Below the pieces are notes generated by a model. That model saw only the letters and a program-made list of their open reading frames with translations, was not told where the DNA came from and searched no databases. Shown piece by piece: positions 16,490 to 55,712 of a DNA stretch of 64,000 bases. Positions within the stretch are counted from its first letter, which is position 1, and each line of letters starts with the position of its first letter. The translations under genes and the position numbers were made by a program. Source of the DNA: Oceanispirochaeta sp. (GTDB lineage Bacteria > Spirochaetota > Spirochaetia > DSM-2461); the NCBI GenBank assembly GCA_963663385.2, contig CAXXXD010000004.1:256001-320000 (forward strand), in the 5' to 3' direction.

Positions 16490-16563
16490 TGGAGGTGGTG
16501 GGAATCGAACCCATGACCTCGTGAATGCCATTCACGCGCTCTAGCCAACTGAGCTACACCCCC
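16490..16563 (-). tRNA. tRNA-Ala(GGC), CCA not encoded
   Basis: GGGGGTGTAGCTCAGTTGGCTAGAGCGCGTGAATGGCATTCACGAGGTCATGGGTTCGATTCCCACCACCTCCA; cloverleaf with G3:U70. Confidence 0.97.
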
Positions 16564-26490: not shown

Positions 26491-26562
26491 GCGAAAGTAG
26501 CTCAGTGGTAGAGCTCCACCTTGCCAAGGTGGATGTCGCGGGTTCAAGTCCCGTCTTTCGCT
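26491..26562 (+). tRNA. tRNA-Gly(GCC), CCA not encoded
   Basis: GCGAAAGTAGCTCAGTGGTAGAGCTCCACCTTGCCAAGGTGGATGTCGCGGGTTCAAGTCCCGTCTTTCGCT. Confidence 0.97.
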
Positions 26563-44324: not shown

Positions 44325-44349
44325 GGCTGAGAAAAGATATGGAGGTTTC

Positions 44350-44717
44350 CTACCATTCTAACGGATCAATGATCTTTATATCTTCTACCTTTTTAAGATC
44401 TCTTTGTCTGCTGTAACCAGAGTCAGATCTTTTTCGATAGCGGTAGCCACGATAATTGCGTCGGGAATTTTCAGTCCATACTTTTTCCGGACGAAGATAG
44501 ACCGCTCAGTAATGTCTCCGTCTGTTTCAAACTCAATCAGGTCACTGACAAAACGTCGAATCATAAATTCCTGATCTTCATTATTCTTCCCGCAACTCAG
44601 CTCTATATGAGAAATAAAGGAGAGATATAATTCATCTTCAAAAGAAATCTTTTCAAAGAGAGGGAAAATGCCTTCAAGGCAGTATACAACAGCGTTGGTA
44701 TCCAACAGATATCTCAT
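44350..44717 (-). pseudogene. PIN-domain (VapC) toxin, C-terminus apparently lost by a 1-nt frameshift
   Basis: LLDTN, ISHIEL, DAIIVATA, LVTAD; stop at 44385; an alternative frame continues KVEDIKIIDPLEW* to 44350. Confidence 0.7.
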
Positions 44718-44959
44718 CTGTTATCCCATTCTTTTCGTAATTTCCTCTGGTATTCGACTCCATCGACACCCCAACCTTTTAATGATCCCTGAAGCGCCTT
44801 AAGTCTTTTAAAGCGGGCTTTTCTGTCTTCAGTACCTTTCGGGCGAACGATGATTGTTACATCCTGAGGATCAAGAGGAAGATCTTTATCCTCGATCACC
44901 AGGTGATGATTCTGGTCGATACGTCCTGATAACTCATAATTTTCCATTTCCAATGACAT
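44714..44959 (-). CDS. Putative antitoxin of the PIN toxin
   Basis: 81-aa ORF with RBS, ATGA-coupled to the PIN gene; ends DGVEYQRKLRKEWDNR. Confidence 0.75.
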   Translation of the reverse strand: MSLEMENYELSGRIDQNHHLVIEDKDLPLDPQDVTIIVRPKGTEDRKARFKRLKALQGSLKGWGVDGVEYQRKLRKEWDNR

Positions 44960-45109
44960 ACTTGTTCCCCTTGGGTCCTTTAACATTAATATATCACTTT
45001 TACACCTGTTCTTACAGGATGGCTTCAAACATGTTACATTATTATTTACAGTTCGCTGTAAGCGCAAGCCCACTCCTGCGGTCGTTAAGAGGGACATACG
45101 TTGTTTTTT

Positions 45110-45270
45110 TCAGAACCGGAGCCACGACGGCGGAGGGGCGGCCTGCGGTACCTGCCGGAAAGACTTCTTCAACGTGAAATGTTATTCCGGCGAAAAATGA
45201 AATTGGGAATCATAACAAGAATGTTGCTGCCGTTTCCCTTCGGTCACAGCAGAACAATGGTGTTATGAAT
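45110..45270. repeat. ~160-bp direct repeat copy A with terminal attC-like hairpin (45210-45268)
   Basis: First 109 bp differ from 54237-54345 at 12 positions; ends TCATAAC...GTTATGA. Confidence 0.9.
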
Positions 45271-45272
45271 AA

Positions 45273-45593
45273 CTAAATCTCTTTGATAGTGGACTTGGAA
45301 GGACTGCTCCAAGATATTTTTTTATATTTACCTTTAATCTTTCCTTTTTCGCGATATTCCTCAAACTGCTCGGAAGGACTCCAGTCTTTACCAGCAGAAA
45401 AATACACATCCAAATCGTTTAACTTAATAAATTTTTCAATTTTATCTTCTGTATCAGAATATGGTATAGACCAATATTCTGGGTAATCACTATCTATACT
45501 TGCTTCTAATTCCAATAGTTTTGTTTCAAAAGATTTTGTGACATTTTTTATATATATCTTATCAGTTACAAAAACAACATATGGATTAATCAT
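45273..45593 (-). CDS. Putative immunity protein for Rhs-CT2
   Basis: AT-rich small ORF directly after the toxin; GGAGG RBS. Confidence 0.7.
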   Translation of the reverse strand: MINPYVVFVTDKIYIKNVTKSFETKLLELEASIDSDYPEYWSIPYSDTEDKIEKFIKLNDLDVYFSAGKDWSPSEQFEEYREKGKIKGKYKKISWSSPSKSTIKEI

Positions 45594-45607
45594 CGATTTA
45601 TTCCCTC

Positions 45608-46594
45608 CTATCTTGTTGGAATTGAATTAATAATCATTTCTGGTCCTCCACCGGGAAGTCCTTTTCCTCCACCTTGAAAGAACTCATTTCCACCAGCAAT
45701 AGGACTTCTTGGAGCCATCTCTTTTATACCAGAAACTTCAGTAATTCTAAATCCATTCCCTAAGGTCCCGGGATTAAGGCCTAATACTTTCTCCAATGCC
45801 ACACCTTGCTGTTTTGAATTAAAAGAACCAGGAGAGAAGTTCCCTATTGCACCTGTAAGCGCTTTTTTATCTGTTATATAAGTTCCAGAACGCCCAATGG
45901 AATCAAATTCTTTAAACCATGATTCAGGAGATACGTTATATCCGACGTTCATTTCTAACATATTTTGCTGTCTAGATGTAAAGAGATTTTTTAGTGAAGG
46001 GTTATTAAAAACACTATCTGCATTAAGGCCACCCACTCCCAGCATACATAGATCAAGAAAGGTTCCGACTGCTAGTGACTTAGCATCTCCTGGGGGTAAA
46101 TATTCTCCATTGGGTCCGTGATAACCAGAATCCCAACCATTTGTCATTCCATTAACAAGTGCACCAACGCCAAGCCCCATATCATAAAGTAGCTTTTCAA
46201 ACGGTCCAAGTGCTGGCATATAACCACTAGCTTGTGGCCCTGCCGGTGTTACTTCTCCTAAGTTCTCTGGAGCTAATGGATCATTGGGTTTATCATCACC
46301 ATCGTCGTCATCATCTTTCTCTATAGGTCGTTTAGAATCTGAATCATATTCACCAGATTCTTCACTAGATAATCCAAAGATCAACCCCGTCGGATCTACA
46401 TATTTAATAGGATTGTTCGAGGTGTAAACATACCAGTTTTGCCCGTCTCTAGCCGGATCTTCAGATATAAATCTCCCCGTATCCGCATCATACCACCTAG
46501 CATTGTAGTAATAATCACCCTCTCCCCCTAAATCGTTGCAAAAAGGAGACCTGCAAGGAGGCGTTGAAACTGGAATTTCTCTAGTAGCTGTCAT
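45608..46594 (-). CDS. Orphan Rhs core plus C-terminal toxin (CT2), N-terminally truncated
   Basis: YYYNARWYDADTGRFISEDP...NNPIKYVDPTG followed by a variable tip; no RBS seen at the annotated start. Confidence 0.85.
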   Translation of the reverse strand: MTATREIPVSTPPCRSPFCNDLGGEGDYYYNARWYDADTGRFISEDPARDGQNWYVYTSNNPIKYVDPTGLIFGLSSEESGEYDSDSKRPIEKDDDDDGDDKPNDPLAPENLGEVTPAGPQASGYMPALGPFEKLLYDMGLGVGALVNGMTNGWDSGYHGPNGEYLPPGDAKSLAVGTFLDLCMLGVGGLNADSVFNNPSLKNLFTSRQQNMLEMNVGYNVSPESWFKEFDSIGRSGTYITDKKALTGAIGNFSPGSFNSKQQGVALEKVLGLNPGTLGNGFRITEVSGIKEMAPRSPIAGGNEFFQGGGKGLPGGGPEMIINSIPTR

Positions 46595-46611
46595 GGTACG
46601 TTAATAAACTA

Positions 46612-47631
46612 TCATTTACCTATCTTACGGGCAAGCGCTTTTCTATTCTTCTCTCTTTGCTTCAGACTGTCCCGAACCAGAGTTTCCAGTGAATCAAGAT
46701 AGGAGTCGGTCACCTCGGCGAAATGGAAATTCTCCCTGGGATGGTACTGCCTGTAGGAAGCCTTGATGTTCTCTTCGCTTTGCCGGGAGTAAACCACCGT
46801 GGTTTCCACCGATTCATGCCCCAAAAGCTCCTGAACATAGCGGATCTCCGCCCCGTGGGCCAGAAGATGGGAAGCACAGCCGTGCCGGAGGGAGTGGACG
46901 GTCAGCCCTTTCCGGTAGAGTCCGCACTTTTCACTCAGCAGTTTAAACCGTTTGTTGATCCCTCCGTGAGTAAACCGGTAGCCCCCGGAAAGGATCAGAG
47001 GCCTGTGGTGTGCTTTCACGCCTTCCAGATACTTATCCAGAAACCAGGCGGCCGCCTTGGTCACTGGGACCCGGCGGTCCTTGGAAAACTTGCTCTGGTG
47101 GATCCACAATAACCGGCTGGCCGGATCGTAATCTTTCACATCCAGATGGGCCGCTTCGGAAGACCGGAGACCGGAAGAGTAAATCAGTTCAAACAGGGCC
47201 CTGTCCCGGAGCCCCAGGGGCTGGTGAATATCGATGGAATCCAGAAAGAGTGCGGTCTCGTCCTCACTCAAAACTTCTTTGATCCGCTCCTGCCGTTTCC
47301 CGAAGCGGACTGTCTCCACCGGTGAGGACAAAACCAGGTTGTTTTCATACAAACAGAGATAGAACTTTTTCACGGAGGTGAAAATACTCATCCTCGTTGA
47401 GTCCTTGTAGCCCCGTCCTCTCTCTCCGGGATGCTCCTGCAGCCAGGAAAGGAAGGAGACAATATCACTCCTTTTCACATCCCGGATGTCTTTCGTGCCA
47501 GTTTCATCCAAAAAGGTAAAGAAGGGGGTAAGCTGAGCTTTCTTTGTCCGAATAGTTCCCTCTTTAAATCCCTGGGCCTTCAGGTATCCGGCGAAAAGGG
47601 AAAGGGCTTTCTGCCTTGAGAGTCTTTTCAT
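46612..47631 (-). CDS. Tyrosine recombinase (XerD-like) 2
   Basis: SSGLRSSE, SKFSKDR, HSLRH, LLGH, TVVY; start reassigned to the ATGA overlap at 47631. Confidence 0.92.
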   Translation of the reverse strand: MKRLSRQKALSLFAGYLKAQGFKEGTIRTKKAQLTPFFTFLDETGTKDIRDVKRSDIVSFLSWLQEHPGERGRGYKDSTRMSIFTSVKKFYLCLYENNLVLSSPVETVRFGKRQERIKEVLSEDETALFLDSIDIHQPLGLRDRALFELIYSSGLRSSEAAHLDVKDYDPASRLLWIHQSKFSKDRRVPVTKAAAWFLDKYLEGVKAHHRPLILSGGYRFTHGGINKRFKLLSEKCGLYRKGLTVHSLRHGCASHLLAHGAEIRYVQELLGHESVETTVVYSRQSEENIKASYRQYHPRENFHFAEVTDSYLDSLETLVRDSLKQREKNRKALARKIGK

Positions 47632-48674
47632 CTCCTTTTTCCCAGCTGTCTGGGATGGTGGCGGTCCAGCTGCTCCTTTACCTCTTTCACATCCACTTTG
47701 GTGTAAATCTCGGTGTTCCCGATGGCCCGGTGCCCCAGGATCTGCTGAATCTGCCTCAAGGGGCAGCCTTGTTTCAGAAGATGGTAGCCCAGACAGTGCC
47801 GGAGGCTGTGGGCTGTCATAAAAGGAATTCCGACTTCTTCGCAAGCCTCTTTCAGATCCCTGTTGAAAGCCTTTCCCAGTTCATCCGAGGAAGAGCCGAA
47901 AAGCCTTTCCCTGTTGCTCTTGCCGGTCAGGATCTCATCCCGAACGGTTAGAAACCGCCTTAATACACTGGCGGCGTAGTCGTTCAGGTAGACCTTCCGG
48001 TCGAATCCTCCCTTGCCGGAGATAACGGTGATCTCTTTCCTTTCAAGATTCAGGTTCTCTTCCTGAAGGTCAGCCGCTTCGCTGATTCGGAGGCCCGAGG
48101 CGTAAAGCAGCTCGGCCAGCACATGGGTCAAATACCGCCTTTTCCGGGCTTTCAGTCCCTTCACGGCAGAGAAGTCCGCCAGACGGGAGAGAAGCCGGGC
48201 CAGTTCTTTCTCCATGGGTAAATCCCTGGGAATGATCCTTTCACCCCGGGGAGCTTTGACGGCGGTAAAGGGATCGGAAACAAGCTTTCCCGAATCCCTC
48301 ATCCACCGGCTGAAGGAGGAAGCGGCCTGACGGTAGGAAGCCAGGGTGTTTACCCTGTAGTCTTCTCCGCTTCCGGTTCCCCGTTCTGTAAGGTGTGCCA
48401 TGAAGCCTCTGGCCGCCCGGATGTCCGTCTGATCCGCCGTCAGTCCTTCTTCTTCCAGATAGGCCAGAAAATGGGGAATCCGGCTGTGGGCGTTCCGGAG
48501 AGCCTGGGAAGAAGCTCCCAGGGCTTTTTTCTCTTCCAGATAGCTGTCTAGCAGGGTTTGATGGGCTTTATGTATGTTTCCTGCGCTTCCGGACACTTCC
48601 CTTCGGGAAGTTCCTGCCGCTTTATGAGAAAAGGAACCCTGACGCTCTCGCGTCAGCCTTTTATCATTATTCAT
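47628..48674 (-). CDS. Tyrosine recombinase (XerC-like) 1
   Basis: ASGLRISE, GKGG, HSLRH, ILGH, TEIY. Confidence 0.92.
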   Translation of the reverse strand: MNNDKRLTRERQGSFSHKAAGTSRREVSGSAGNIHKAHQTLLDSYLEEKKALGASSQALRNAHSRIPHFLAYLEEEGLTADQTDIRAARGFMAHLTERGTGSGEDYRVNTLASYRQAASSFSRWMRDSGKLVSDPFTAVKAPRGERIIPRDLPMEKELARLLSRLADFSAVKGLKARKRRYLTHVLAELLYASGLRISEAADLQEENLNLERKEITVISGKGGFDRKVYLNDYAASVLRRFLTVRDEILTGKSNRERLFGSSSDELGKAFNRDLKEACEEVGIPFMTAHSLRHCLGYHLLKQGCPLRQIQQILGHRAIGNTEIYTKVDVKEVKEQLDRHHPRQLGKRR

Positions 48675-48800
48675 GCTCTGTCTCTCTCCGGGATTTTGTA
48701 CCCACTTTCTCCTAAACCTTTACCGGATTTAACTTTAAGCCGAATAGTCGGCCTGTACCCGGTTTTCCCACTTTCGGCTAATCCCTTACCAGAACAACAA

Positions 48801-51461
48801 TTATTGTTTTTCATCATTCCGTACCCGCTTTGTACCCGGTTCCCTGGTTAAATGGTCAGGTGAAGGAATCACCGAGTCATCGAAAAGAACTAGGTCAGAA
48901 TCAGCCGCCAGTCCGTAACGCCTGGTCATACCCCGGCCCGATCCTTTGCTCCGGATGTATTCATACTCTGTCAAAAGCCTCATATTCTTCTTGATCAGCT
49001 CATGGGAGAATCCGGAGACCTCCCGGATCTCCCGCTGGGTCACCCAGATATCGGTCAGGAATAGCCCGTCCTTCTCCGCTTTGCTTTTAAGAAGATCCCG
49101 GAGCTCCTCATACAAAATGACAGCCGAACGGGGTAAAGTGGTCATGGTGGAAGAAAGCAGGGTCTTCATGATCCGGTAAGCCACCTTGTAGTCTTCCAGG
49201 TCGCACTCTATGTAATGCTTCCCCTGATCATTCTTCTCCTGTTTCTGGTACTGCCTCAGGAAGCACACGCAGGCAATGAGGTCTACAAACCGTTCATGGT
49301 CCCGCCGGCTCCGCATCATGGAAGAGGGAAAGTCCAGCTCCCCGGCGAAAGGATTAACAATTACCCGGTTTTTCAGGAGCCTTTGGGCGGCCTGGTGGGT
49401 CTTAATGATTTCCGGGAGATCTTCTTCCTTCTTCCGGTAGGCTTCCAGGGTGTACTTCTCCCTCTGCCTCCGGTGGATCTCCCTGGTCTGCTCCCGGCTC
49501 TCGTCTGTGTTTACCACAAAGCAGCGGGAGGCGTTCTCCGGGTTGATCTCCGTCGAAGTGGAGGACATCACGGCGGAAACAATGACTTTTTTCCGTACCA
49601 GCTTGCTGGTCATTCTTCCGGTCTTCTCATCCTTGGTGGTCACCAATCGGGACAGCTCTTTTCCGGATAACATCTCCCGCATCTGATGATCTACGCTCTC
49701 CGAGTGGACCGCCTCTCCCATGACCAGAAACTTGTGCAGCAGAGCTTCATCGGGAAGGTAGTTCAAGGCCTGGTCGGAAAGGCTGGTCATGGAAATCACA
49801 TCCTCTTCGGGCATCAGCTTTTTTACCGTATCGATCAGAAAGCTTTTACCAGCGGCGGACTGGGAGATGACGATTACGCTTACCGGATCGGCCATCAGAC
49901 GGGAGGAGGCGGCCAGGTACATAAGGATCTTGTTTTCCTCCTCTCCCACGTAGCCCAGAGCTTCCGTATCCCTGACAATCCTGTCGAAAAGATTGGGATC
50001 CTGTAAAAGGGAGAGGCCAGCTGCCTCTTCCTCAGGGGTCAAAGACCCCTTCTTTAAACCGGTATCCGAAAGGGCCCGTTCAGACTCTTCTTCCAAATAG
50101 TCCAGGATATCCAGTAAATCCTTTTCAATCCTGGCGGATTCCTCGCCGAACCGGCGAGCGACCGCGACAGAGAAAAGGGTCCGGCTCCGGGCGGAGAAGA
50201 GGTCTACATTGTCGATGAACTTGACAGTATCATCCGCCGGCCTCTGACAGCGGACATTCACCTTCAGGGAACTGACAAATCCTTCTTTAACTCCGATGAT
50301 CCGGTAATCCAGAGAAGAACAATGAAACAGGTACTTACCATCGGCCACCAGTGGCCTTTTATCACCCTCCGGCGGTTTCAGAATGCTGCTCTCGATCAGG
50401 GATAGAACTTGTTCCTTTGTGATTTTTGGTAATGACTCATTCCAGTCCTTGGAAGGCGGGAAGATGGTTCTGACGGCAATACCCTTTTCGAAAAGAGTTT
50501 TTCCGACCTTTTCTGCAGCCTCCCGGCCCGCTTCATCACCGTCGAAAGCAAGGACAACTTCCTTTGTACGGTTTTCTTTCAAAGCTTCTACAAGGTGACT
50601 GGTCACCCCGTTGGCGCCGTAAGAGCAGGAAACATTTTCGCATCCCAAAACCATCAGCGAAAAGGCATCAATCACCGATTCTGTCAGGATCATCCGGTCC
50701 GGGTAAACCTTGAATGCCTGGTGGTTAAACAGGCCCCGGTGGGGCCCTTTCAAATAAAGGTGTTTCACCCTGGACCTTTCATTTATCTTCCTGCCGTAAA
50801 ATCTCCGGACTTTCCCATCGGAAGAATAGAGTGGGAAAACAATGCAGTCCCGGAAGGTTTCAAGGTTCTTTTCCGTAAAGAGGCCCGCCTCTTTCAGCTC
50901 CTGAAACTGGACTTCGGACAGTTTGTCTTTCAAGTCTCCGGGGCAGTAGCCGACTTTCAGCCGTCCCAGAAGCTCCGGAGCATAGATCCCCCGTTTTTTC
51001 AGGTAGGAAACTGCTTCCGGATGGGAGAGCTGACGGTGATAGTAATCCGTTACATCTTCCAATGAGGTTGTTTTAAGCAGAGGTTCGCCCTCCAGTGGCA
51101 CCGGCGGAGCCGGTACCTCCTTCGGCCTGAATGCCTTTCCCTCATCTCCTTTCAAGATAGCCAGAGCCTCTTTAAACTCCACGCCCTGGTGCCTCATCAC
51201 AAAGTCAAACACATCCCCGCCGGCCCCGCAGCCGAAACAGTGAAACAGTCCCTTGGACTGGTCCACCGAAAGAGAAGGATTCTTGTCCTCATGGAAGGGG
51301 CACAGCCCCATGAAAGAAGAGCCTTTCTTCTCGAGAGAGATACCATAGGAGGTAATCACACTGACTATATCGGTTTGTGCCTTGATCCGGTCTTTTTCAA
51401 ACTCGTCCAGCAGGGAAGCCCCCTTCAAAGGGCTCCTGCCTTTCAGCTTTGAAGAAGTCAT
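48801..51461 (-). CDS. DnaG-like primase (CHC2 Zn finger + TOPRIM) fused to a P-loop NTPase domain
   Basis: CPFHEDKNPS...HCFGC; ESVIDAFS; FDGDEAG; SQSAAGKS; ATGA overlap with the parA stop. Confidence 0.9.
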   Translation of the reverse strand: MTSSKLKGRSPLKGASLLDEFEKDRIKAQTDIVSVITSYGISLEKKGSSFMGLCPFHEDKNPSLSVDQSKGLFHCFGCGAGGDVFDFVMRHQGVEFKEALAILKGDEGKAFRPKEVPAPPVPLEGEPLLKTTSLEDVTDYYHRQLSHPEAVSYLKKRGIYAPELLGRLKVGYCPGDLKDKLSEVQFQELKEAGLFTEKNLETFRDCIVFPLYSSDGKVRRFYGRKINERSRVKHLYLKGPHRGLFNHQAFKVYPDRMILTESVIDAFSLMVLGCENVSCSYGANGVTSHLVEALKENRTKEVVLAFDGDEAGREAAEKVGKTLFEKGIAVRTIFPPSKDWNESLPKITKEQVLSLIESSILKPPEGDKRPLVADGKYLFHCSSLDYRIIGVKEGFVSSLKVNVRCQRPADDTVKFIDNVDLFSARSRTLFSVAVARRFGEESARIEKDLLDILDYLEEESERALSDTGLKKGSLTPEEEAAGLSLLQDPNLFDRIVRDTEALGYVGEEENKILMYLAASSRLMADPVSVIVISQSAAGKSFLIDTVKKLMPEEDVISMTSLSDQALNYLPDEALLHKFLVMGEAVHSESVDHQMREMLSGKELSRLVTTKDEKTGRMTSKLVRKKVIVSAVMSSTSTEINPENASRCFVVNTDESREQTREIHRRQREKYTLEAYRKKEEDLPEIIKTHQAAQRLLKNRVIVNPFAGELDFPSSMMRSRRDHERFVDLIACVCFLRQYQKQEKNDQGKHYIECDLEDYKVAYRIMKTLLSSTMTTLPRSAVILYEELRDLLKSKAEKDGLFLTDIWVTQREIREVSGFSHELIKKNMRLLTEYEYIRSKGSGRGMTRRYGLAADSDLVLFDDSVIPSPDHLTREPGTKRVRNDEKQ

Positions 51462-52264
51462 AGACCGCACCGGGATAAAAGTTCATTCCCCAGAGCCCTT
51501 ACTTCCTCCGCGGGCCTTTTCCATTGGTTACCGGACAGCTGGACCAGGCCCTTCCTCTCGGCAATGGCTTCCTCGATCCGGATCGACCGGCTGATCACGG
51601 TCTCAAAACAGGTTTCTCCGAAGAACCCGGTCAGTTCGGCTTTCAGCTCCCGGCCGATCAGGGTAACCGGGTTGTAGCTGTTAAGGACGACTCCCAGGGC
51701 GTAAAGAGTCGGGTTCAGGCTCCGCCTGATCTTCTCCATGGTTTCCAGAAGGTCCGAAGCTCCCTGCAGGGCGTACTGACTGGCTGTAATGGGCATCACA
51801 AGGTGATCGGCGGCTACAAGGGCATTGCCCGTGAGGATTCCCAGGGAAGGGGGAGTATCCATCAGGATAAAATCGTAGGATTCGAACTCCTCCCGTTCGA
51901 AAAGCTCCTTAAACCGTACATAGCCGTCGAACTCTCCCACAAGCTGTTTTTCCAGCAGGCTGAGATAGATCGATCCGGAAAGGATCTCAAGATTCTCACT
52001 GACACTTTGAACGTGAATTTCATCTTCTGTAATGGCCTCGTACAGTCCTTTTCCCGGCTGGTCGAAGAAACTTCTGGAAAGGTTGCCTTGGCTGTCACAG
52101 TCTACCAGAAGGGTTTTCAGCCCTTTATCATGGGCCAGGTAACAGCCCAGTTCTCTTGTCATGGTGGTCTTGCCGACCCCGCCTTTCTGGTTGGTAAATA
52201 CGATCTTTTGGCGACTAAGAATGGGGCCCTGATGCTTTGCATCACCCATTTTATCTAGATTCAC
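51458..52264 (-). CDS. ParA/Soj family ATPase
   Basis: NQKGGVGKTT, VDCDSQGN, DTPPSLG. Confidence 0.92.
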   Translation of the reverse strand: MNLDKMGDAKHQGPILSRQKIVFTNQKGGVGKTTMTRELGCYLAHDKGLKTLLVDCDSQGNLSRSFFDQPGKGLYEAITEDEIHVQSVSENLEILSGSIYLSLLEKQLVGEFDGYVRFKELFEREEFESYDFILMDTPPSLGILTGNALVAADHLVMPITASQYALQGASDLLETMEKIRRSLNPTLYALGVVLNSYNPVTLIGRELKAELTGFFGETCFETVISRSIRIEEAIAERKGLVQLSGNQWKRPAEEVRALGNELLSRCGL

Positions 52265-52517
52265 ACTGGGCCTCCTCTTCCTTCTTCCAGAGGAGGTTCC
52301 GGATCACTTCCAGAGTCTCGGGGATCTTCTTCAAAGGAGTCCGGCAGGTACCCAGAAAAAGTTTACGGTCTCCGGTAATGTTCTCTCCTTCCAGAGTGAA
52401 AACCATCTCCTGGGCTCCCAGGGTTCCCATGCTCAGGTAAACATCGACCAGCCGGTGGTGCTGATCCAAAAGGTAGGCGACTTCGGCCAGGTTGGCTGTT
52501 ATGAGGCTGTCTTTCAC
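52251..52517 (-). CDS. Small hypothetical protein (DUF5659-like, paralogue 2)
   Basis: GTG start overlaps the upstream stop; TANLAEVAYLL...FTLEG resembles the neighbouring ORF. Confidence 0.6.
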   Translation of the reverse strand: MKDSLITANLAEVAYLLDQHHRLVDVYLSMGTLGAQEMVFTLEGENITGDRKLFLGTCRTPLKKIPETLEVIRNLLWKKEEEAQCESR

Positions 52518-52798
52518 TGGTGGCCCCCTTTCATGCTTTTCCGGTAGTCCCGCTTGGCATTGTTGGCGTAGTTGTTGATCTCTCCGTAACAACGGCGGAA
52601 GAGAACCAGATTGACAACCGCTTCACTTCTCAAAAAGTCGCTTTGAAGATGAGGAATGACTTCTCCTTCGAAGTAGAAGTCGCAGATGATATCTTTGGTG
52701 ACGTTCCCGGCCAGAAGGCGGCAGGTAACCAGGTGGGGCGTTACCCCTTTAGTCAGGTAGTAGGCGGCCTCGTACAGGTCGCTGGTGCGGATTTCCAT
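52514..52798 (-). CDS. Small hypothetical protein (DUF5659-like, paralogue 1)
   Basis: TSDLYEAAYYL...FYFEG; GGAG RBS. Confidence 0.65.
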   Translation of the reverse strand: MEIRTSDLYEAAYYLTKGVTPHLVTCRLLAGNVTKDIICDFYFEGEVIPHLQSDFLRSEAVVNLVLFRRCYGEINNYANNAKRDYRKSMKGGHQ

Positions 52799-52869
52799 TC
52801 TTTACTCCATCGGAAGGAGCAGAACGGCATTTGCGGGGATAAGAATTTATGGTAGAATTGTAAGTGCAT
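52753..52869 (-). CDS. Putative 38-aa upstream ORF/leader peptide
   Basis: GGAG-9nt-ATG; MHLQFYHKFLSPQMPFCSFRWSKEWKSAPATCTRPPTT*; overlaps the next gene out of frame. Confidence 0.4.
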   Translation of the reverse strand: MHLQFYHKFLSPQMPFCSFRWSKEWKSAPATCTRPPTT

Positions 52870-52941
52870 GGAGTTCTACTCCTATGTTGTTTTTAAGCCT
52901 GTTTCCCGAAGGTCGCCAAACACTCGGAAACGGGCTTTTTT
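52864..52941 (+). ncRNA. Putative ~78-nt cis-antisense RNA (SymR-like layout)
   Basis: Extended -10 TGGTAGAAT (52850-52858); covers the uORF ATG and RBS; ends in hairpin AAGCCTGTTTCC...GGAAACGGGCTT plus T-run. Confidence 0.55.
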
Positions 52942-52992
52942 ATTGCCAACGGCAATATTTCAAAAGTGTGTCAAGTAGCATTTGACTGTTTA

Positions 52993-53021
52993 ATAATGAC
53001 ACATCATGTATCACTCGTCAA
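52993..53021 (-). promoter_or_regulatory. Putative promoter of the element operon with an overlapping palindromic operator
   Basis: TTGACG-17-CATTAT; TGACACAT-C-ATGTATCA at 52997-53013. Confidence 0.5.
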
Positions 53022-53041
53022 GTTATATGATAAGATAAATC

Positions 53042-53437
53042 ATGCCTCAAGTACCGAAGAAAGAATTACCCCCTTTAAAAATCAGTGACAAAAGCATTGG
53101 TGAAATCATTGCCAAAATAAGAAAACAGAGAGGACTTACACAGCTTGAATTGGCTGAAACAATTGGCATTACAAGAACCGCATTATCTGCCTATGAAAGC
53201 GGAAGAGTCCGACTTTATGATGAAATGATAGCAAGATTCGCCATTGCTCTGAATGTCTCGACTGACACTCTTTTCGGGCTGAAGGATGAAAATATTCTTG
53301 CACAGGATACAAATCTGAAACTTACAAAACGCCTGAAAGAACTGGAAGAACTCCCACCGGCAGACCAAAAAAAAATCCTTGAGCATATCAAGGATTTGAG
53401 AGCCATGAATGAATTAAAGGAAAATCAATCCAAATAG
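53042..53437 (+). CDS. XRE family HTH repressor
   Basis: IRKQRGLTQLELAETIGITRTALSAYESG; divergent from the element operon. Confidence 0.92.
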   Translation: MPQVPKKELPPLKISDKSIGEIIAKIRKQRGLTQLELAETIGITRTALSAYESGRVRLYDEMIARFAIALNVSTDTLFGLKDENILAQDTNLKLTKRLKELEELPPADQKKILEHIKDLRAMNELKENQSK

Positions 53438-53489
53438 ATATTCTTTCGATATCCGGCTATTACAAAGAGAATGAGAAACCTAACCCTGC

Positions 53490-53783
53490 TTACTGCTTAC
53501 TGCATTCCATATTCATCTCTTTTCGAAGTAAATCATTCAGCAAAGTCTGATACCCTTTACCATGACTTTTTAGCCAAAGAAGAATGTCCGCATCGATTCG
53601 GGTGGTTATCTGCTCTTTCCTGGGCTTGTAAATATCGTGAAAAGGGACGGCCCTGGAAAAATCCTCATCAGACCACTCTTTTATGTCACTGGTATCTATT
53701 TCGGAGTCGGGTAATTCGGCAAGCTTGGCGAGTCTTGCCTTTGTGTCTTCATCCATAGGACTAAAACCATTTTCCTGCTTCAT
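53490..53783 (-). CDS. brnA: BrnA antitoxin
   Basis: IDTSDI, ITTRIDADIL.WLK..GKGYQT. Confidence 0.88.
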   Translation of the reverse strand: MKQENGFSPMDEDTKARLAKLAELPDSEIDTSDIKEWSDEDFSRAVPFHDIYKPRKEQITTRIDADILLWLKSHGKGYQTLLNDLLRKEMNMECSKQ

Positions 53784-54048
53784 ACTTCCTCCTCTCTGCC
53801 GTTGTTGCTTTTCGGGCAGATATTATTCTGAAAACGTCTTCATCCTGCTGATCTCTCATGGTGTAAACCACAAGCACCAGCAGAATGCCGCCGATATGCC
53901 CCATAATTTGCTGACGGGGCTCTGAATCCGTGTAATCCTCACGAACCAGGGCAAACGGGTCGGCAAAAACATACTTGGCGTCTTTGAATGACAATCCGTG
54001 TTTCTTCTGGTTGATTATGTCTTTTTCTTTATCCCATTCAAAGGTCAT
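53761..54048 (-). CDS. brnT: BrnT toxin (DUF497)
   Basis: FEWDKEK..N..KHGLSF...RIISARKAT..ER..Y. Confidence 0.92.
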   Translation of the reverse strand: MTFEWDKEKDIINQKKHGLSFKDAKYVFADPFALVREDYTDSEPRQQIMGHIGGILLVLVVYTMRDQQDEDVFRIISARKATTAERRKYEAGKWF

Positions 54049-54054
54049 AATATA

Positions 54055-54083
54055 ATTATACTATTGTAACTACATTTTTGCAA
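54055..54083 (-). promoter_or_regulatory. brnTA promoter (likely leaderless) with palindrome TGTA-AC-TACA
   Basis: TTGCAA-17-TATAAT, 6 nt before ATG; palindrome 54065-54074 in the spacer. Confidence 0.75.
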
Positions 54084-54236
54084 TTATGATAAAAAGAGAA
54101 AACACTCCGCCAGCTCCTGTATAAAATTATTCTGGAATCTATAAACTTACCACTAAAAGCAGGTGAACAGAGAATTCGTTATATGGCGAAGCGGACAGCT
54201 GCCAGGGACGGCAGCTGCAGATAACGGATTTTCTGA

Positions 54237-54396
54237 TCAGAACCGGAGCCACGACGGCGGAGGTTCGGCCTGCGGTTACTGCCGGAAAAGCTTTTTCAAC
54301 GTGAAATGTCATTCCGGCGAAAAATAAAATTAGGGGTCATAACAACAGTGCTGCACCAGACAGGCAAGCCTGCAGGTGAGCATGGACGTTATGAAT
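54237..54396. repeat. ~160-bp direct repeat copy B with terminal attC-like hairpin (54337-54394)
   Basis: Homologous to 45110-45270. Confidence 0.9.
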
Positions 54397-54858
54397 TTAC
54401 GGAATGTGAGAAAAAGCATCTTTAAAGGTTTTATTCTTATAATCCCAATTAAATGTCTTAGTATCTCCTACAGAATTTCCAGAGGCAAAATAAGGAGTTA
54501 AAACTATACCCGGAGAATATTCTTTATTATTTGGGTAAGACAATTTCATCTTAAATCCATAAAAGATTAACTCATGATTCTTAAATGATATCAAGATTTT
54601 CCCTGTTGCATCTTCAAGTATATCATCATGAAAATAAATTACATGATCCCGATTAATATCAGACTTCAGAACACCTATGAAGCTTTCACATATGTCTGAA
54701 TCAGAATAATAATCAGTGTAAATCTGAACAATGTCATCATCTATTATTAATTCGAAGTCAGCAGACTTTTTATTTAATAATATTATATCATCAGAAAATA
54801 TTACTGATGAAAATAAAAGGATTTGTACTGTTATTAGAAAAATATTCCTCAATCCCAT
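54397..54858 (-). CDS. Putative periplasmic immunity protein for Rhs-CT1
   Basis: AT-rich; overlaps the toxin 3' end; signal-peptide-like MGLRNIFLITVQILLFSSVIFS. Confidence 0.7.
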   Translation of the reverse strand: MGLRNIFLITVQILLFSSVIFSDDIILLNKKSADFELIIDDDIVQIYTDYYSDSDICESFIGVLKSDINRDHVIYFHDDILEDATGKILISFKNHELIFYGFKMKLSYPNNKEYSPGIVLTPYFASGNSVGDTKTFNWDYKNKTFKDAFSHIP

Positions 54859-55712
54859 AAAATATAACCCCAATTGTAGTTTTTATTTATCTTTTTCTTT
54901 GCATATTGATCTAAGAAGCCATTTTCAACCATATTAATTTTACCAGCATTTGATGATGGATGAACTTCTCCTGCTTCTGTAACTGTCGTAACATGATCGT
55001 AAACACCATCACCATCCCAATCATAAAAGTTTTGAGAACCCACTCCACCATTTCCCGGTTTCAGTAGGTTAGGATCATTGGCCATTTCATCAGCAGTTCG
55101 ATCACCAATACCAACACCACTTACTGTTTCAGCTGAAATCATAGATGTCGAAGAACAGTCTAATCCTTGTCCTTCAGGTGATGGAGTTTCTCCACCAGAA
55201 TGATAATTACCACCTACAAACGATTTCGCTGTTTCGGCCAAACCATTGTTAAGGATTTCATCAACCGTTTCAGATATTTCATCATATGCAGCTTCAGTTA
55301 TATTATCCATTATCTCATCTTCAACTGCTTGAATCTGTTCATTAAGCCGATCTATATTTCGGTCATTATCCATACCGGAATTAATCAGATCATCTTTTTT
55401 ATCTTTAAGATCATTTCTTCGATCTTCTCTGCCTTGTGCATCTCTTCTATCTTTTCTATCGCTTTTCTTTTTTTCATATTCCGTATTTCTCTGCTCTCGA
55501 TCTCTTTCATCATCAGCACTATCGCCATCAACACGGCGCATTCCTGTAGGATCGACAAATTTTAGAGGGTTGTTTGATACATAATTGAACCAGTTTTGGC
55601 CGTCTCTAGCCGGGTCTTCCGATATAAACCTTCCGGTCCCCGCATCATACCACCGTGCATTGTAGTAATAGAGTCCGGTATCTTCATCCAGATCCTTTCC
55701 GGTATATTTCAT
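54849..55712 (-). CDS. Short Rhs core plus NlpC/P60-like C-terminal toxin (CT1)
   Basis: YTGKDLDEDTGLYYYNARWYD...VDPTG; tip Y.SGG...GLDCSS...DHV...HPSS. Confidence 0.85.
   Translation of the reverse strand: MKYTGKDLDEDTGLYYYNARWYDAGTGRFISEDPARDGQNWFNYVSNNPLKFVDPTGMRRVDGDSADDERDREQRNTEYEKKKSDRKDRRDAQGREDRRNDLKDKKDDLINSGMDNDRNIDRLNEQIQAVEDEIMDNITEAAYDEISETVDEILNNGLAETAKSFVGGNYHSGGETPSPEGQGLDCSSTSMISAETVSGVGIGDRTADEMANDPNLLKPGNGGVGSQNFYDWDGDGVYDHVTTVTEAGEVHPSSNAGKINMVENGFLDQYAKKKINKNYNWGYILWD

Follow-up and report, generated by a model that had tools for sequence, protein, structure and literature searches.

Chromosomal integrons, and attC clusters that have no integron integrase (CALIN), carry sites built of R and L boxes, an unpaired central spacer, an extrahelical base on the R''-L'' arm and AAC/GTT feet (PMC2727003, PMC7439510, 10.1101/030866; these and the other papers cited below are described from the parts of their text that were available). 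The first extrahelical base sets strand choice, its identity being of little weight (PMC2727003), and a CALIN is defined by two or more attC within 4 kb (10.1101/030866). In Rhs C-terminal displacement a new toxin tip pushes the resident tip and a core fragment downstream, with a circle implied (Jackson et al. 2009, PMC2935791), and recombinase genes have been reported near loci of this kind: integrase-like genes next to Rhs loci of Snodgrassella and Gilliamella (PMC5727410), Xer-type systems adjoining Rhs poly-immunity arrays (Martinkus et al. 2026, as cited in 10.64898/2026.07.13.738213, which may overlap with the present work), and an XerD-family recombinase with immunity genes and integron-like intergenic repeats in rAID-1 of Bacteroidales (10.1101/471110). 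Here we analysed a 64,000-nucleotide (nt) stretch of an Oceanispirochaeta sp. genome (assembly GCA_963663385.2, contig CAXXXD010000004.1, positions 256,001 to 320,000; hereafter the window), which holds a 9,157-bp mobile element bounded by an 11-bp repeat within Rhs core codons, and two attC-like hairpins that, judging from sequence, appear to mark the downstream edge of its putative Rhs toxin-immunity cargo. We refer to the genome studied as G000, to its contigs as C1-C4, to the genomes of relatives by other G numbers and to loci by L numbers.

The boundaries of the element come from comparing its copies. The same unit stands in the window and on C3, the two copies sharing 9,168 identical bases (window 46500-55667) with all 10 mismatches lying outside, and at either end is an 11-bp direct repeat encoding the Rhs core residues Y-Y-N-A on the minus strand (46500..46510 at the recombinase side, where identity with the C3 copy begins, and 55657..55667 at the toxin side, where it stops). 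Because identity ends at these repeats, one unit went into two distinct Rhs fragments, each time at these 11 bp. The core repeats are only 80% alike over 128 nt and both insertions cross within the 11 bp, which does not match a crossover by homologous recombination in a long near-identical core. The incoming tip is in frame with the Rhs core and the former tip and immunity gene have been pushed behind the element, so that a displaced tip with its core fragment lies downstream of the new one, just as in the displacement of Jackson et al. The same insertion junction occurs in three genomes of the genus, a third copy, which has a different tip, runs across the C2/C3 contig ends, and G017 has a related 9.9-kb unit inside a 2,136-residue Rhs gene of full length, joined instead at F-T-G-K codons. 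The island as a whole (44325..55712) lies between convergent ftsK and K+ channel genes and can be recognised as an insertion since these genes are close neighbours, ending at most about 250 nt apart, in 6 of 9 same-genus genomes examined; in the other three (G001, G008 and G009) the gap is filled by other DNA and may be an insertion hotspot. Modules at window 55690-55712 and at G000:C4:1140009 start at the same K-Y-T-G-K codons, immediately after unrelated host genes and close to where the G017-type element is joined. All seven Rhs cores of G000 are short fragments with open frames of up to 330 residues and no full-length Rhs was found in this genome, given which its tips are probably undelivered orphans.

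The presence of the same unit at two loci suggests a circular intermediate, and there is good reason to think that such a circle, together with the two XerC/D-like tyrosine recombinases encoded by the element (recombinase 1, 47628..48674, and recombinase 2, 46612..47844 with a likely start near 47631, both on the minus strand), would carry out the insertion. Assembled contigs from 7 public runs (at most 4 studies) contained no joint fitting excision at either the 11-bp core or the hairpins, though such contigs drop rare variants and their lack of joints is no argument against circles; one joint, 54331-45210, was rejected as excision as it matches a paralogue on C1. Summed depth over the element in these contigs was some 2-3x that of the flanks, as three chromosomal copies would give. 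To the left of the 11-bp core a candidate dif-like half site was made out by eye. Recombinase 1 had no plasmid matches at E 1e-30. Similar to the Snodgrassella and Gilliamella loci and to the systems of Martinkus et al., tyrosine recombinases lie next to Rhs tips and immunity genes, while the attachment site, element boundary and attC-like site defined here are not given in the available text of PMC5727410. Likewise, rAID-1 is described as a single recombinase before a long array of orphan immunity genes (one XerD-like gene followed by at least two co-directional ones; 10.1101/471110), in contrast to the two recombinases, replication module, toxin tips and Rhs insertion found here, and the gene order of our element is not that of rAID-1.

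Both hairpins, which an earlier note on this DNA had picked out from sequence alone, are present as it described. Hairpin 1 (45210..45268) is part of the resident module and hairpin 2 (54337..54394) lies inside the mobile unit, and each is the terminal part of a 118-bp repeat on the plus strand (45110..45227, entering hairpin 1, and 54237..54354, entering hairpin 2) whose two window copies are 87% identical with a longest exact match of 27 nt. Similar to attC sites, both have R''/R' boxes with AAC/GTT feet paired at 7/7 positions, L''/L' boxes also paired at 7/7 with an extrahelical G on the R''-L'' arm, and an unpaired central spacer, although the lowest-energy fold of hairpin 2 can partly pair it. 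A second extrahelical base 6 bp past the first fits the alignment of hairpin 2 and is less clear in hairpin 1. The spacers, noted earlier as unpaired 5-nt stretches, are 6/6 and not 5/5 in the attC register, the R''-L'' spacer of the lineage's arrays being 5 nt. DNA folding gave z-scores of -3.14 (plus) and -4.06 (minus) for hairpin 1 and of -2.78 (plus) and -3.47 (minus) for hairpin 2, and on the minus strand the three pairs of each box, R and L, that lie closest to the spacer form with a probability of 0.86 and 0.92, respectively. Additional support comes from a covariance model trained on 28 array attC sites from the host genome and relatives, none of these hairpins included, which scored hairpin 2 at 32.8 bits and hairpin 1 at 25.0 bits, on the plus strand only, ranked them first and second in the window (E 2e-6 and 3e-4, both values being rough) and aligned them with one inserted base per hairpin arm. 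Together with the box pairing these scores bear out the attC geometry that had been proposed. In the genome-wide search with this model, where 150 of 1280 candidates were scored, the hairpins were not listed. A strict geometry scan over both strands of the 5.3-Mb genome returned seven matches, four of which are this hairpin family, and a looser scan gave one match in 1.39 Mb of shuffled DNA. An Rfam scan of the window returned only two tRNAs (16490-16563 and 26491-26562). Window 54157-54226 may hold the right half of an attC-like site; a short hairpin of another kind comes after it, and several modules have the same arrangement.

Array attC sites in the host lineage start with TAACAA and carry their extra base at L'' position 4, and this base is mostly G (15/20 matches in an unconstrained scan around the intI genes of 14 relatives). 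The extra G, thought an oddity before, is therefore ordinary in the lineage and, with the polarity of the arrays, places the hairpin top strand on the plus strand of the window, against the open reading frames (ORFs) beside it; these lie on the minus strand with stops 4 nt (45273) and 2 nt (54397) from the hairpins. The opposite orientation and the 2-4 nt distance to stop codons had thus been read correctly, the word 'immunity' being positional only. An integron cassette has its ORF followed by an attC in the same orientation, and here the polarity is reversed. It is consequently very improbable that the tip-immunity pairs are ordinary integron cassettes, singly excised by IntI and captured at attI: the hairpins do sit in the place of an attC just past a stop codon, and one G008 module is found behind ordinary attC sites, at most 7.5 kb from an intI, but no attC stands at the other end of the pair and the G008 hairpin also faces against the array. 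The idea that the pairs are handled as cassettes holds insofar as they are exchangeable modules. It does not hold for attC-bounded cassettes, as the most recently moved unit is bounded by the 11-bp repeat and not by the hairpins, an attC x attC event here would excise 9.1 kb with the whole element, and most related modules have no hairpin.

As the earlier note observed, there is no integron integrase in the window, and the distant IntI it suggested does exist. With the TIGR02249 cut-off of 265 bits, an IntI with all six catalytic residues intact was found on C2 (G000:C2:1687729-1688955, 381 bits), the only one in the host genome above the cut-off. Its gene points away from its own array, for which reason a Treponema-type reversed intI was rejected. 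The attC sites of this array are frequently interrupted by a group II intron, and many sites in the four attC clusters of G000 (C2:1650000-1688000, C3:727000-756000, C4:1178000-1197000 and C1:26000-38000, one of which adjoins intI) hold identical intron copies. Across 20 array loci (356 kb) we counted 61 AAC/GTT sites, 59 with 5/5 spacers, 60 with a first spacer of 5 nt and 9 with perfect feet; two further matches at the score floor had other triplets. In G013 about ten near-identical attC sites recur every 400 bp, mostly without an ORF of at least 80 residues between them (L261:8959-16344), and a decayed cassette row at G000:C4:1012-1024 kb was rejected as belonging to the hairpin class because its sites, by eye, are of another shape.

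The hairpins can be followed as a class in relatives. Loci were chosen by pattern (29 matches in 11 of 61 genomes; control 1) and by a hairpin model (24/61 genomes), a selection that inflates class proportions and builds in part of the covariation and of the constancy of the extra G. Among 53 distinct sites the first spacer is 6 nt in 48 and the feet are perfect in 41, and the triplets are AAC/GTT in 33, AAG/CTT in 14, AAT/ATT in 5 and mismatched in one, so that the first base of the crossover triplet is altered in 20/53 and compensated in 19, with TT/AA kept (the scan fixed TAA/TT). Covariation was seen at 11 of 18 pairs (0/500 shuffles; selected set, partly built in), and the start of the L box is conserved as GYT/ARC, unlike in array attC sites. 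All seven Rhs tips or cores of G000 are followed by such a hairpin, in each case reverse-facing; besides the two in the window these include C2:1863695, C3:1644476, C3:1634883, C4:1138911 and C1:281379, each behind an Rhs tip and a putative immunity gene. A toxin-antitoxin pair closes the modules on C1 and C2, at C4:1138911 and at window 44385-46594, and that side is without backbone. A sharp edge is found at the R' foot: among 36 hairpin pairs with a likeness of 90% or more, the 40 nt past R'' are identical at a fraction of 0.73 and the 40 nt past R' at 0.48 (these pairs not being independent), compared with 0.48 and 0.45 in other pairs, and only 0-4 identical bases follow R'. As similarity stops so sharply there, the R' end is a cargo boundary; the immunity ORFs end at or near the R' foot, with the stop inside it in 6/25. 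One R' foot, GTTGTTT in G007 (L344:2290-3592), was rejected as an IntI junction, being an insertion sequence with a 7-bp duplication that we take to be IS481-like.

Taken together, the 6-nt first spacer, near-perfect feet and frequent compensated change of the crossover base set these hairpins apart as a separate attC-like class. Further unlike integron and CALIN sites, they have a short terminal stem and run in reverse to their ORF, in relatives often have AAG/CTT or AAT/ATT feet and can stand in back-to-back pairs, and in the window lie in an Rhs element 9.1 kb apart, beyond the 4-kb CALIN rule, with IntI away on C2. No description of the element or the hairpin class was found in the literature covered, which included few subscription papers and no supplements; the available parts of the background papers (PMC8352920, PMC8618304, PMC3607928, PMC8946536, 10.1101/030866 and 10.1101/2022.02.06.479319) likewise do not describe the class. 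The 6-nt spacer and the GYT/ARC start of the L box distinguish the hairpins from array attC and might suggest that the folded hairpins are recognised by the two recombinases of the element, as the earlier note had allowed. Both enzymes keep the catalytic R-K-H-R-H-Y, invariant in the alignment. The IntI-specific insertion, however, grips the extrahelical bases of attC, and both lack its roughly 25-35 residues and reach only 103 and 91 bits against the TIGR02249 cut-off of 265; moreover most elements with this backbone have no hairpin and the mobile unit ends elsewhere, at the 11-bp repeat. We consider it quite unlikely that these enzymes handle the hairpins.

The arrangement of some hairpins brings up another possibility, that they delimit a small mobile unit, non-autonomous and moved by some other enzyme, in which two of them stand back to back with a third hairpin or a toxin-antitoxin pair between them; the window would then have eroded halves of it. 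Back-to-back pairs occur in G001, G004, G009, G017 and G021, one of them folding into three hairpins (z -10.6), with a central hairpin at L243:1379-1557, L228, L229, L044:5990-6171 and L328 and a toxin-antitoxin pair at L329, and a lone AAG/CTT copy lies between two convergent, ordinary host genes with no Rhs core nearby (G000:C3:1355532-1355591). Yet copy number is low, at 1-9 per genome in the hairpin-model search, no candidate enzyme was found beside the hairpins and 38/53 lie within 3 kb of an Rhs core, which together make this unlikely. Of the remaining 15 without an Rhs module in the DNA examined, two resemble ordinary attC. A different long hairpin occupies the variable region of the Treponema elements L091, L100 and L101.

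The reading we favour, although we hold its truth to be evenly poised, is that the element's own recombinases displace Rhs tips site-specifically and that the hairpins serve as a rarely used second crossover for the host IntI. By geometry and triplet rule the hairpin class is compatible with use by IntI, and a role in recombination is plausible. On this reading IntI acting in trans would recombine the folded minus strands at R', an exchange for which the arguments on either side seem to us about equally strong; hairpin 1 x hairpin 2 would give a circle of 9.1 kb carrying the displaced tip along with the element backbone, a new toxin variant. Support comes from the plus-strand attC-model scores, the intact catalytic residues of IntI, the hairpin behind every Rhs core of G000 and the sharp edge at the R' foot. 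Moreover the altered triplet base is the one that IntI1 leaves free, requiring only that it match in both partners (PMC2811028). The extrahelical base of the window hairpins sits one position nearer the apex, which by our count matches sites that IntI1 recombines, whose extrahelical bases lie 9 and 16 nt away from the R box (PMC7439510). Within hairpin types the unpaired spacers vary more than the R boxes (164/504 versus 53/616 positions), an attC-homing-type group II intron interrupts the R'' box of a hairpin with AAG/CTT feet, three bases off its usual position (L156:5727-7800), and the G008 module lies near intI.

Several observations weigh against this. Two G000 variants of the element have a common backbone and different hairpin types, and identity between them breaks about 110 nt before the hairpin, within the repeat, which points to homologous recombination there. 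R''/R' are paired at 7/7 in 41/53 hairpins versus 9/61 array sites (the thresholds differ), and mostly perfect feet suggest that crossing with unlike partners is rare; the 6-nt first spacer contrasts with 5 nt in nearly all array sites. None of the eight G000 hairpins holds the attC-homing-type intron, and 32/42 related modules are without a hairpin. Among the 24 hairpin-model genomes 19 have an IntI above the cut-off, one has an IntI below it and in four none was found (one of these being 88% complete). The hairpins stand 9.1 kb apart and their bottom strands fall on the template predicted for the leading strand, a position from which excision is poor even for 3-kb cassettes (PMC5371416), and the hairpin set was itself picked by a pattern and by a model trained on the set.

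Many of the same data can be read differently, with the hairpins as attC descendants that are no longer recombined and persist as structural repeats (for instance a 3' hairpin of the immunity transcript), cargo being reshuffled by insertion and RecA crossovers in the adjacent repeats. The mosaic repeats with their break upstream of the hairpin, the mostly perfect feet and the presence of hairpins in genomes without a found IntI would all fit, as would the wobble-compatible mismatches, which favour the minus strand 13 to 3, minus being the transcript strand at the window locus. If they served only as terminators, as the earlier note had considered, they should look like them, with a G+C-rich stem and a T run behind it, but neither is among the 18 intrinsic-terminator calls of the region. 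Furthermore 529/574 cells of the hairpin alignment are full Watson-Crick pairs, 13 of the 38 Rhs-linked hairpins face with their module (25 against, all within 3 kb), and the many distinct immunity-hairpin joints at R' are left unexplained. We therefore find relic hairpins doubtful, if still a real alternative.

At present we can only speculate on how the two activities would be joined where the favoured reading, insertion by the element's recombinases and occasional exchange by host IntI, holds. A hairpin whose crossover base is altered would be expected to recombine solely with hairpins of the same type, leaving attI out. A two-enzyme cycle, with site-specific entry of a self-replicating element into Rhs by its own recombinases, exit by an attC x attC event of the host IntI carrying the displaced pair as cargo, and attC subfamilies insulated from the integron by their crossover base, is a possibility that we put forward tentatively.

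The other genes of the island are as follows. Behind the incoming tip 2, fused to an Rhs core tail (54849..55712, minus; TIGR03696, 71.6 bits), lies putative immunity gene 2 (54397..54873, minus; identical copy on C3), and further in are a BrnT/BrnA toxin-antitoxin pair (53490..54048, minus; PF04365 and PF14384), an XRE-type helix-turn-helix regulator (53042..53437, plus; PF01381), two small ORFs conserved in related elements with no family match (52251..52798, minus), a ParA-type ATPase (51458..52264, minus; PF13614) and a CHC2 zinc finger/Toprim primase with a long C-terminal domain (48801..51470, minus). Past the recombinases, whose assignment as XerC/D-like enzymes without the IntI insertion is based on profile matches and alignment, the displaced tip 1 joins an element-derived start, an Rhs core tail and a C-terminal putative toxin across the junction (45608..46594, minus; TIGR03696, 54.5 bits), followed by putative immunity gene 1 (45273..45593, minus) and, in the resident module, a PIN-domain toxin with an antitoxin assigned by position (44385..45097, minus; PF01850). 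'Toxin' and 'immunity' are putative roles given by gene position: the two immunity ORFs had no match in Pfam, NCBIfam or PHROGs and a protein atlas gave no result, and the toxin ORFs matched only Rhs core models in these three databases. Related primases were found at at least 73 genome loci, at least 80 metagenome loci and one weak viral locus, and an Rhs core lies within 1.5 kb of 23/55 terminal recombinases. The layout recurs in Bacteroidota, where some loci have long core repeats through which homologous recombination would be possible as well; a hairpin is present in 10/42 Rhs modules having 2 kb of downstream DNA and in 0/9 of the Bacteroidota-named loci.

Until now, accounts of Rhs tip exchange have invoked homologous recombination and a circle that is hypothetical. 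With a defined element whose ends are exactly placed at 11 bp of the Rhs core, whose copies at two loci are identical and whose relatives are spread over spirochaetes and Bacteroidota, tip exchange becomes directly testable. If the hairpins are also IntI substrates, they would be attC sites at work away from integrons, reversed in polarity and naturally altered at the crossover base, alterations that in the literature surveyed are otherwise known only as laboratory mutants.

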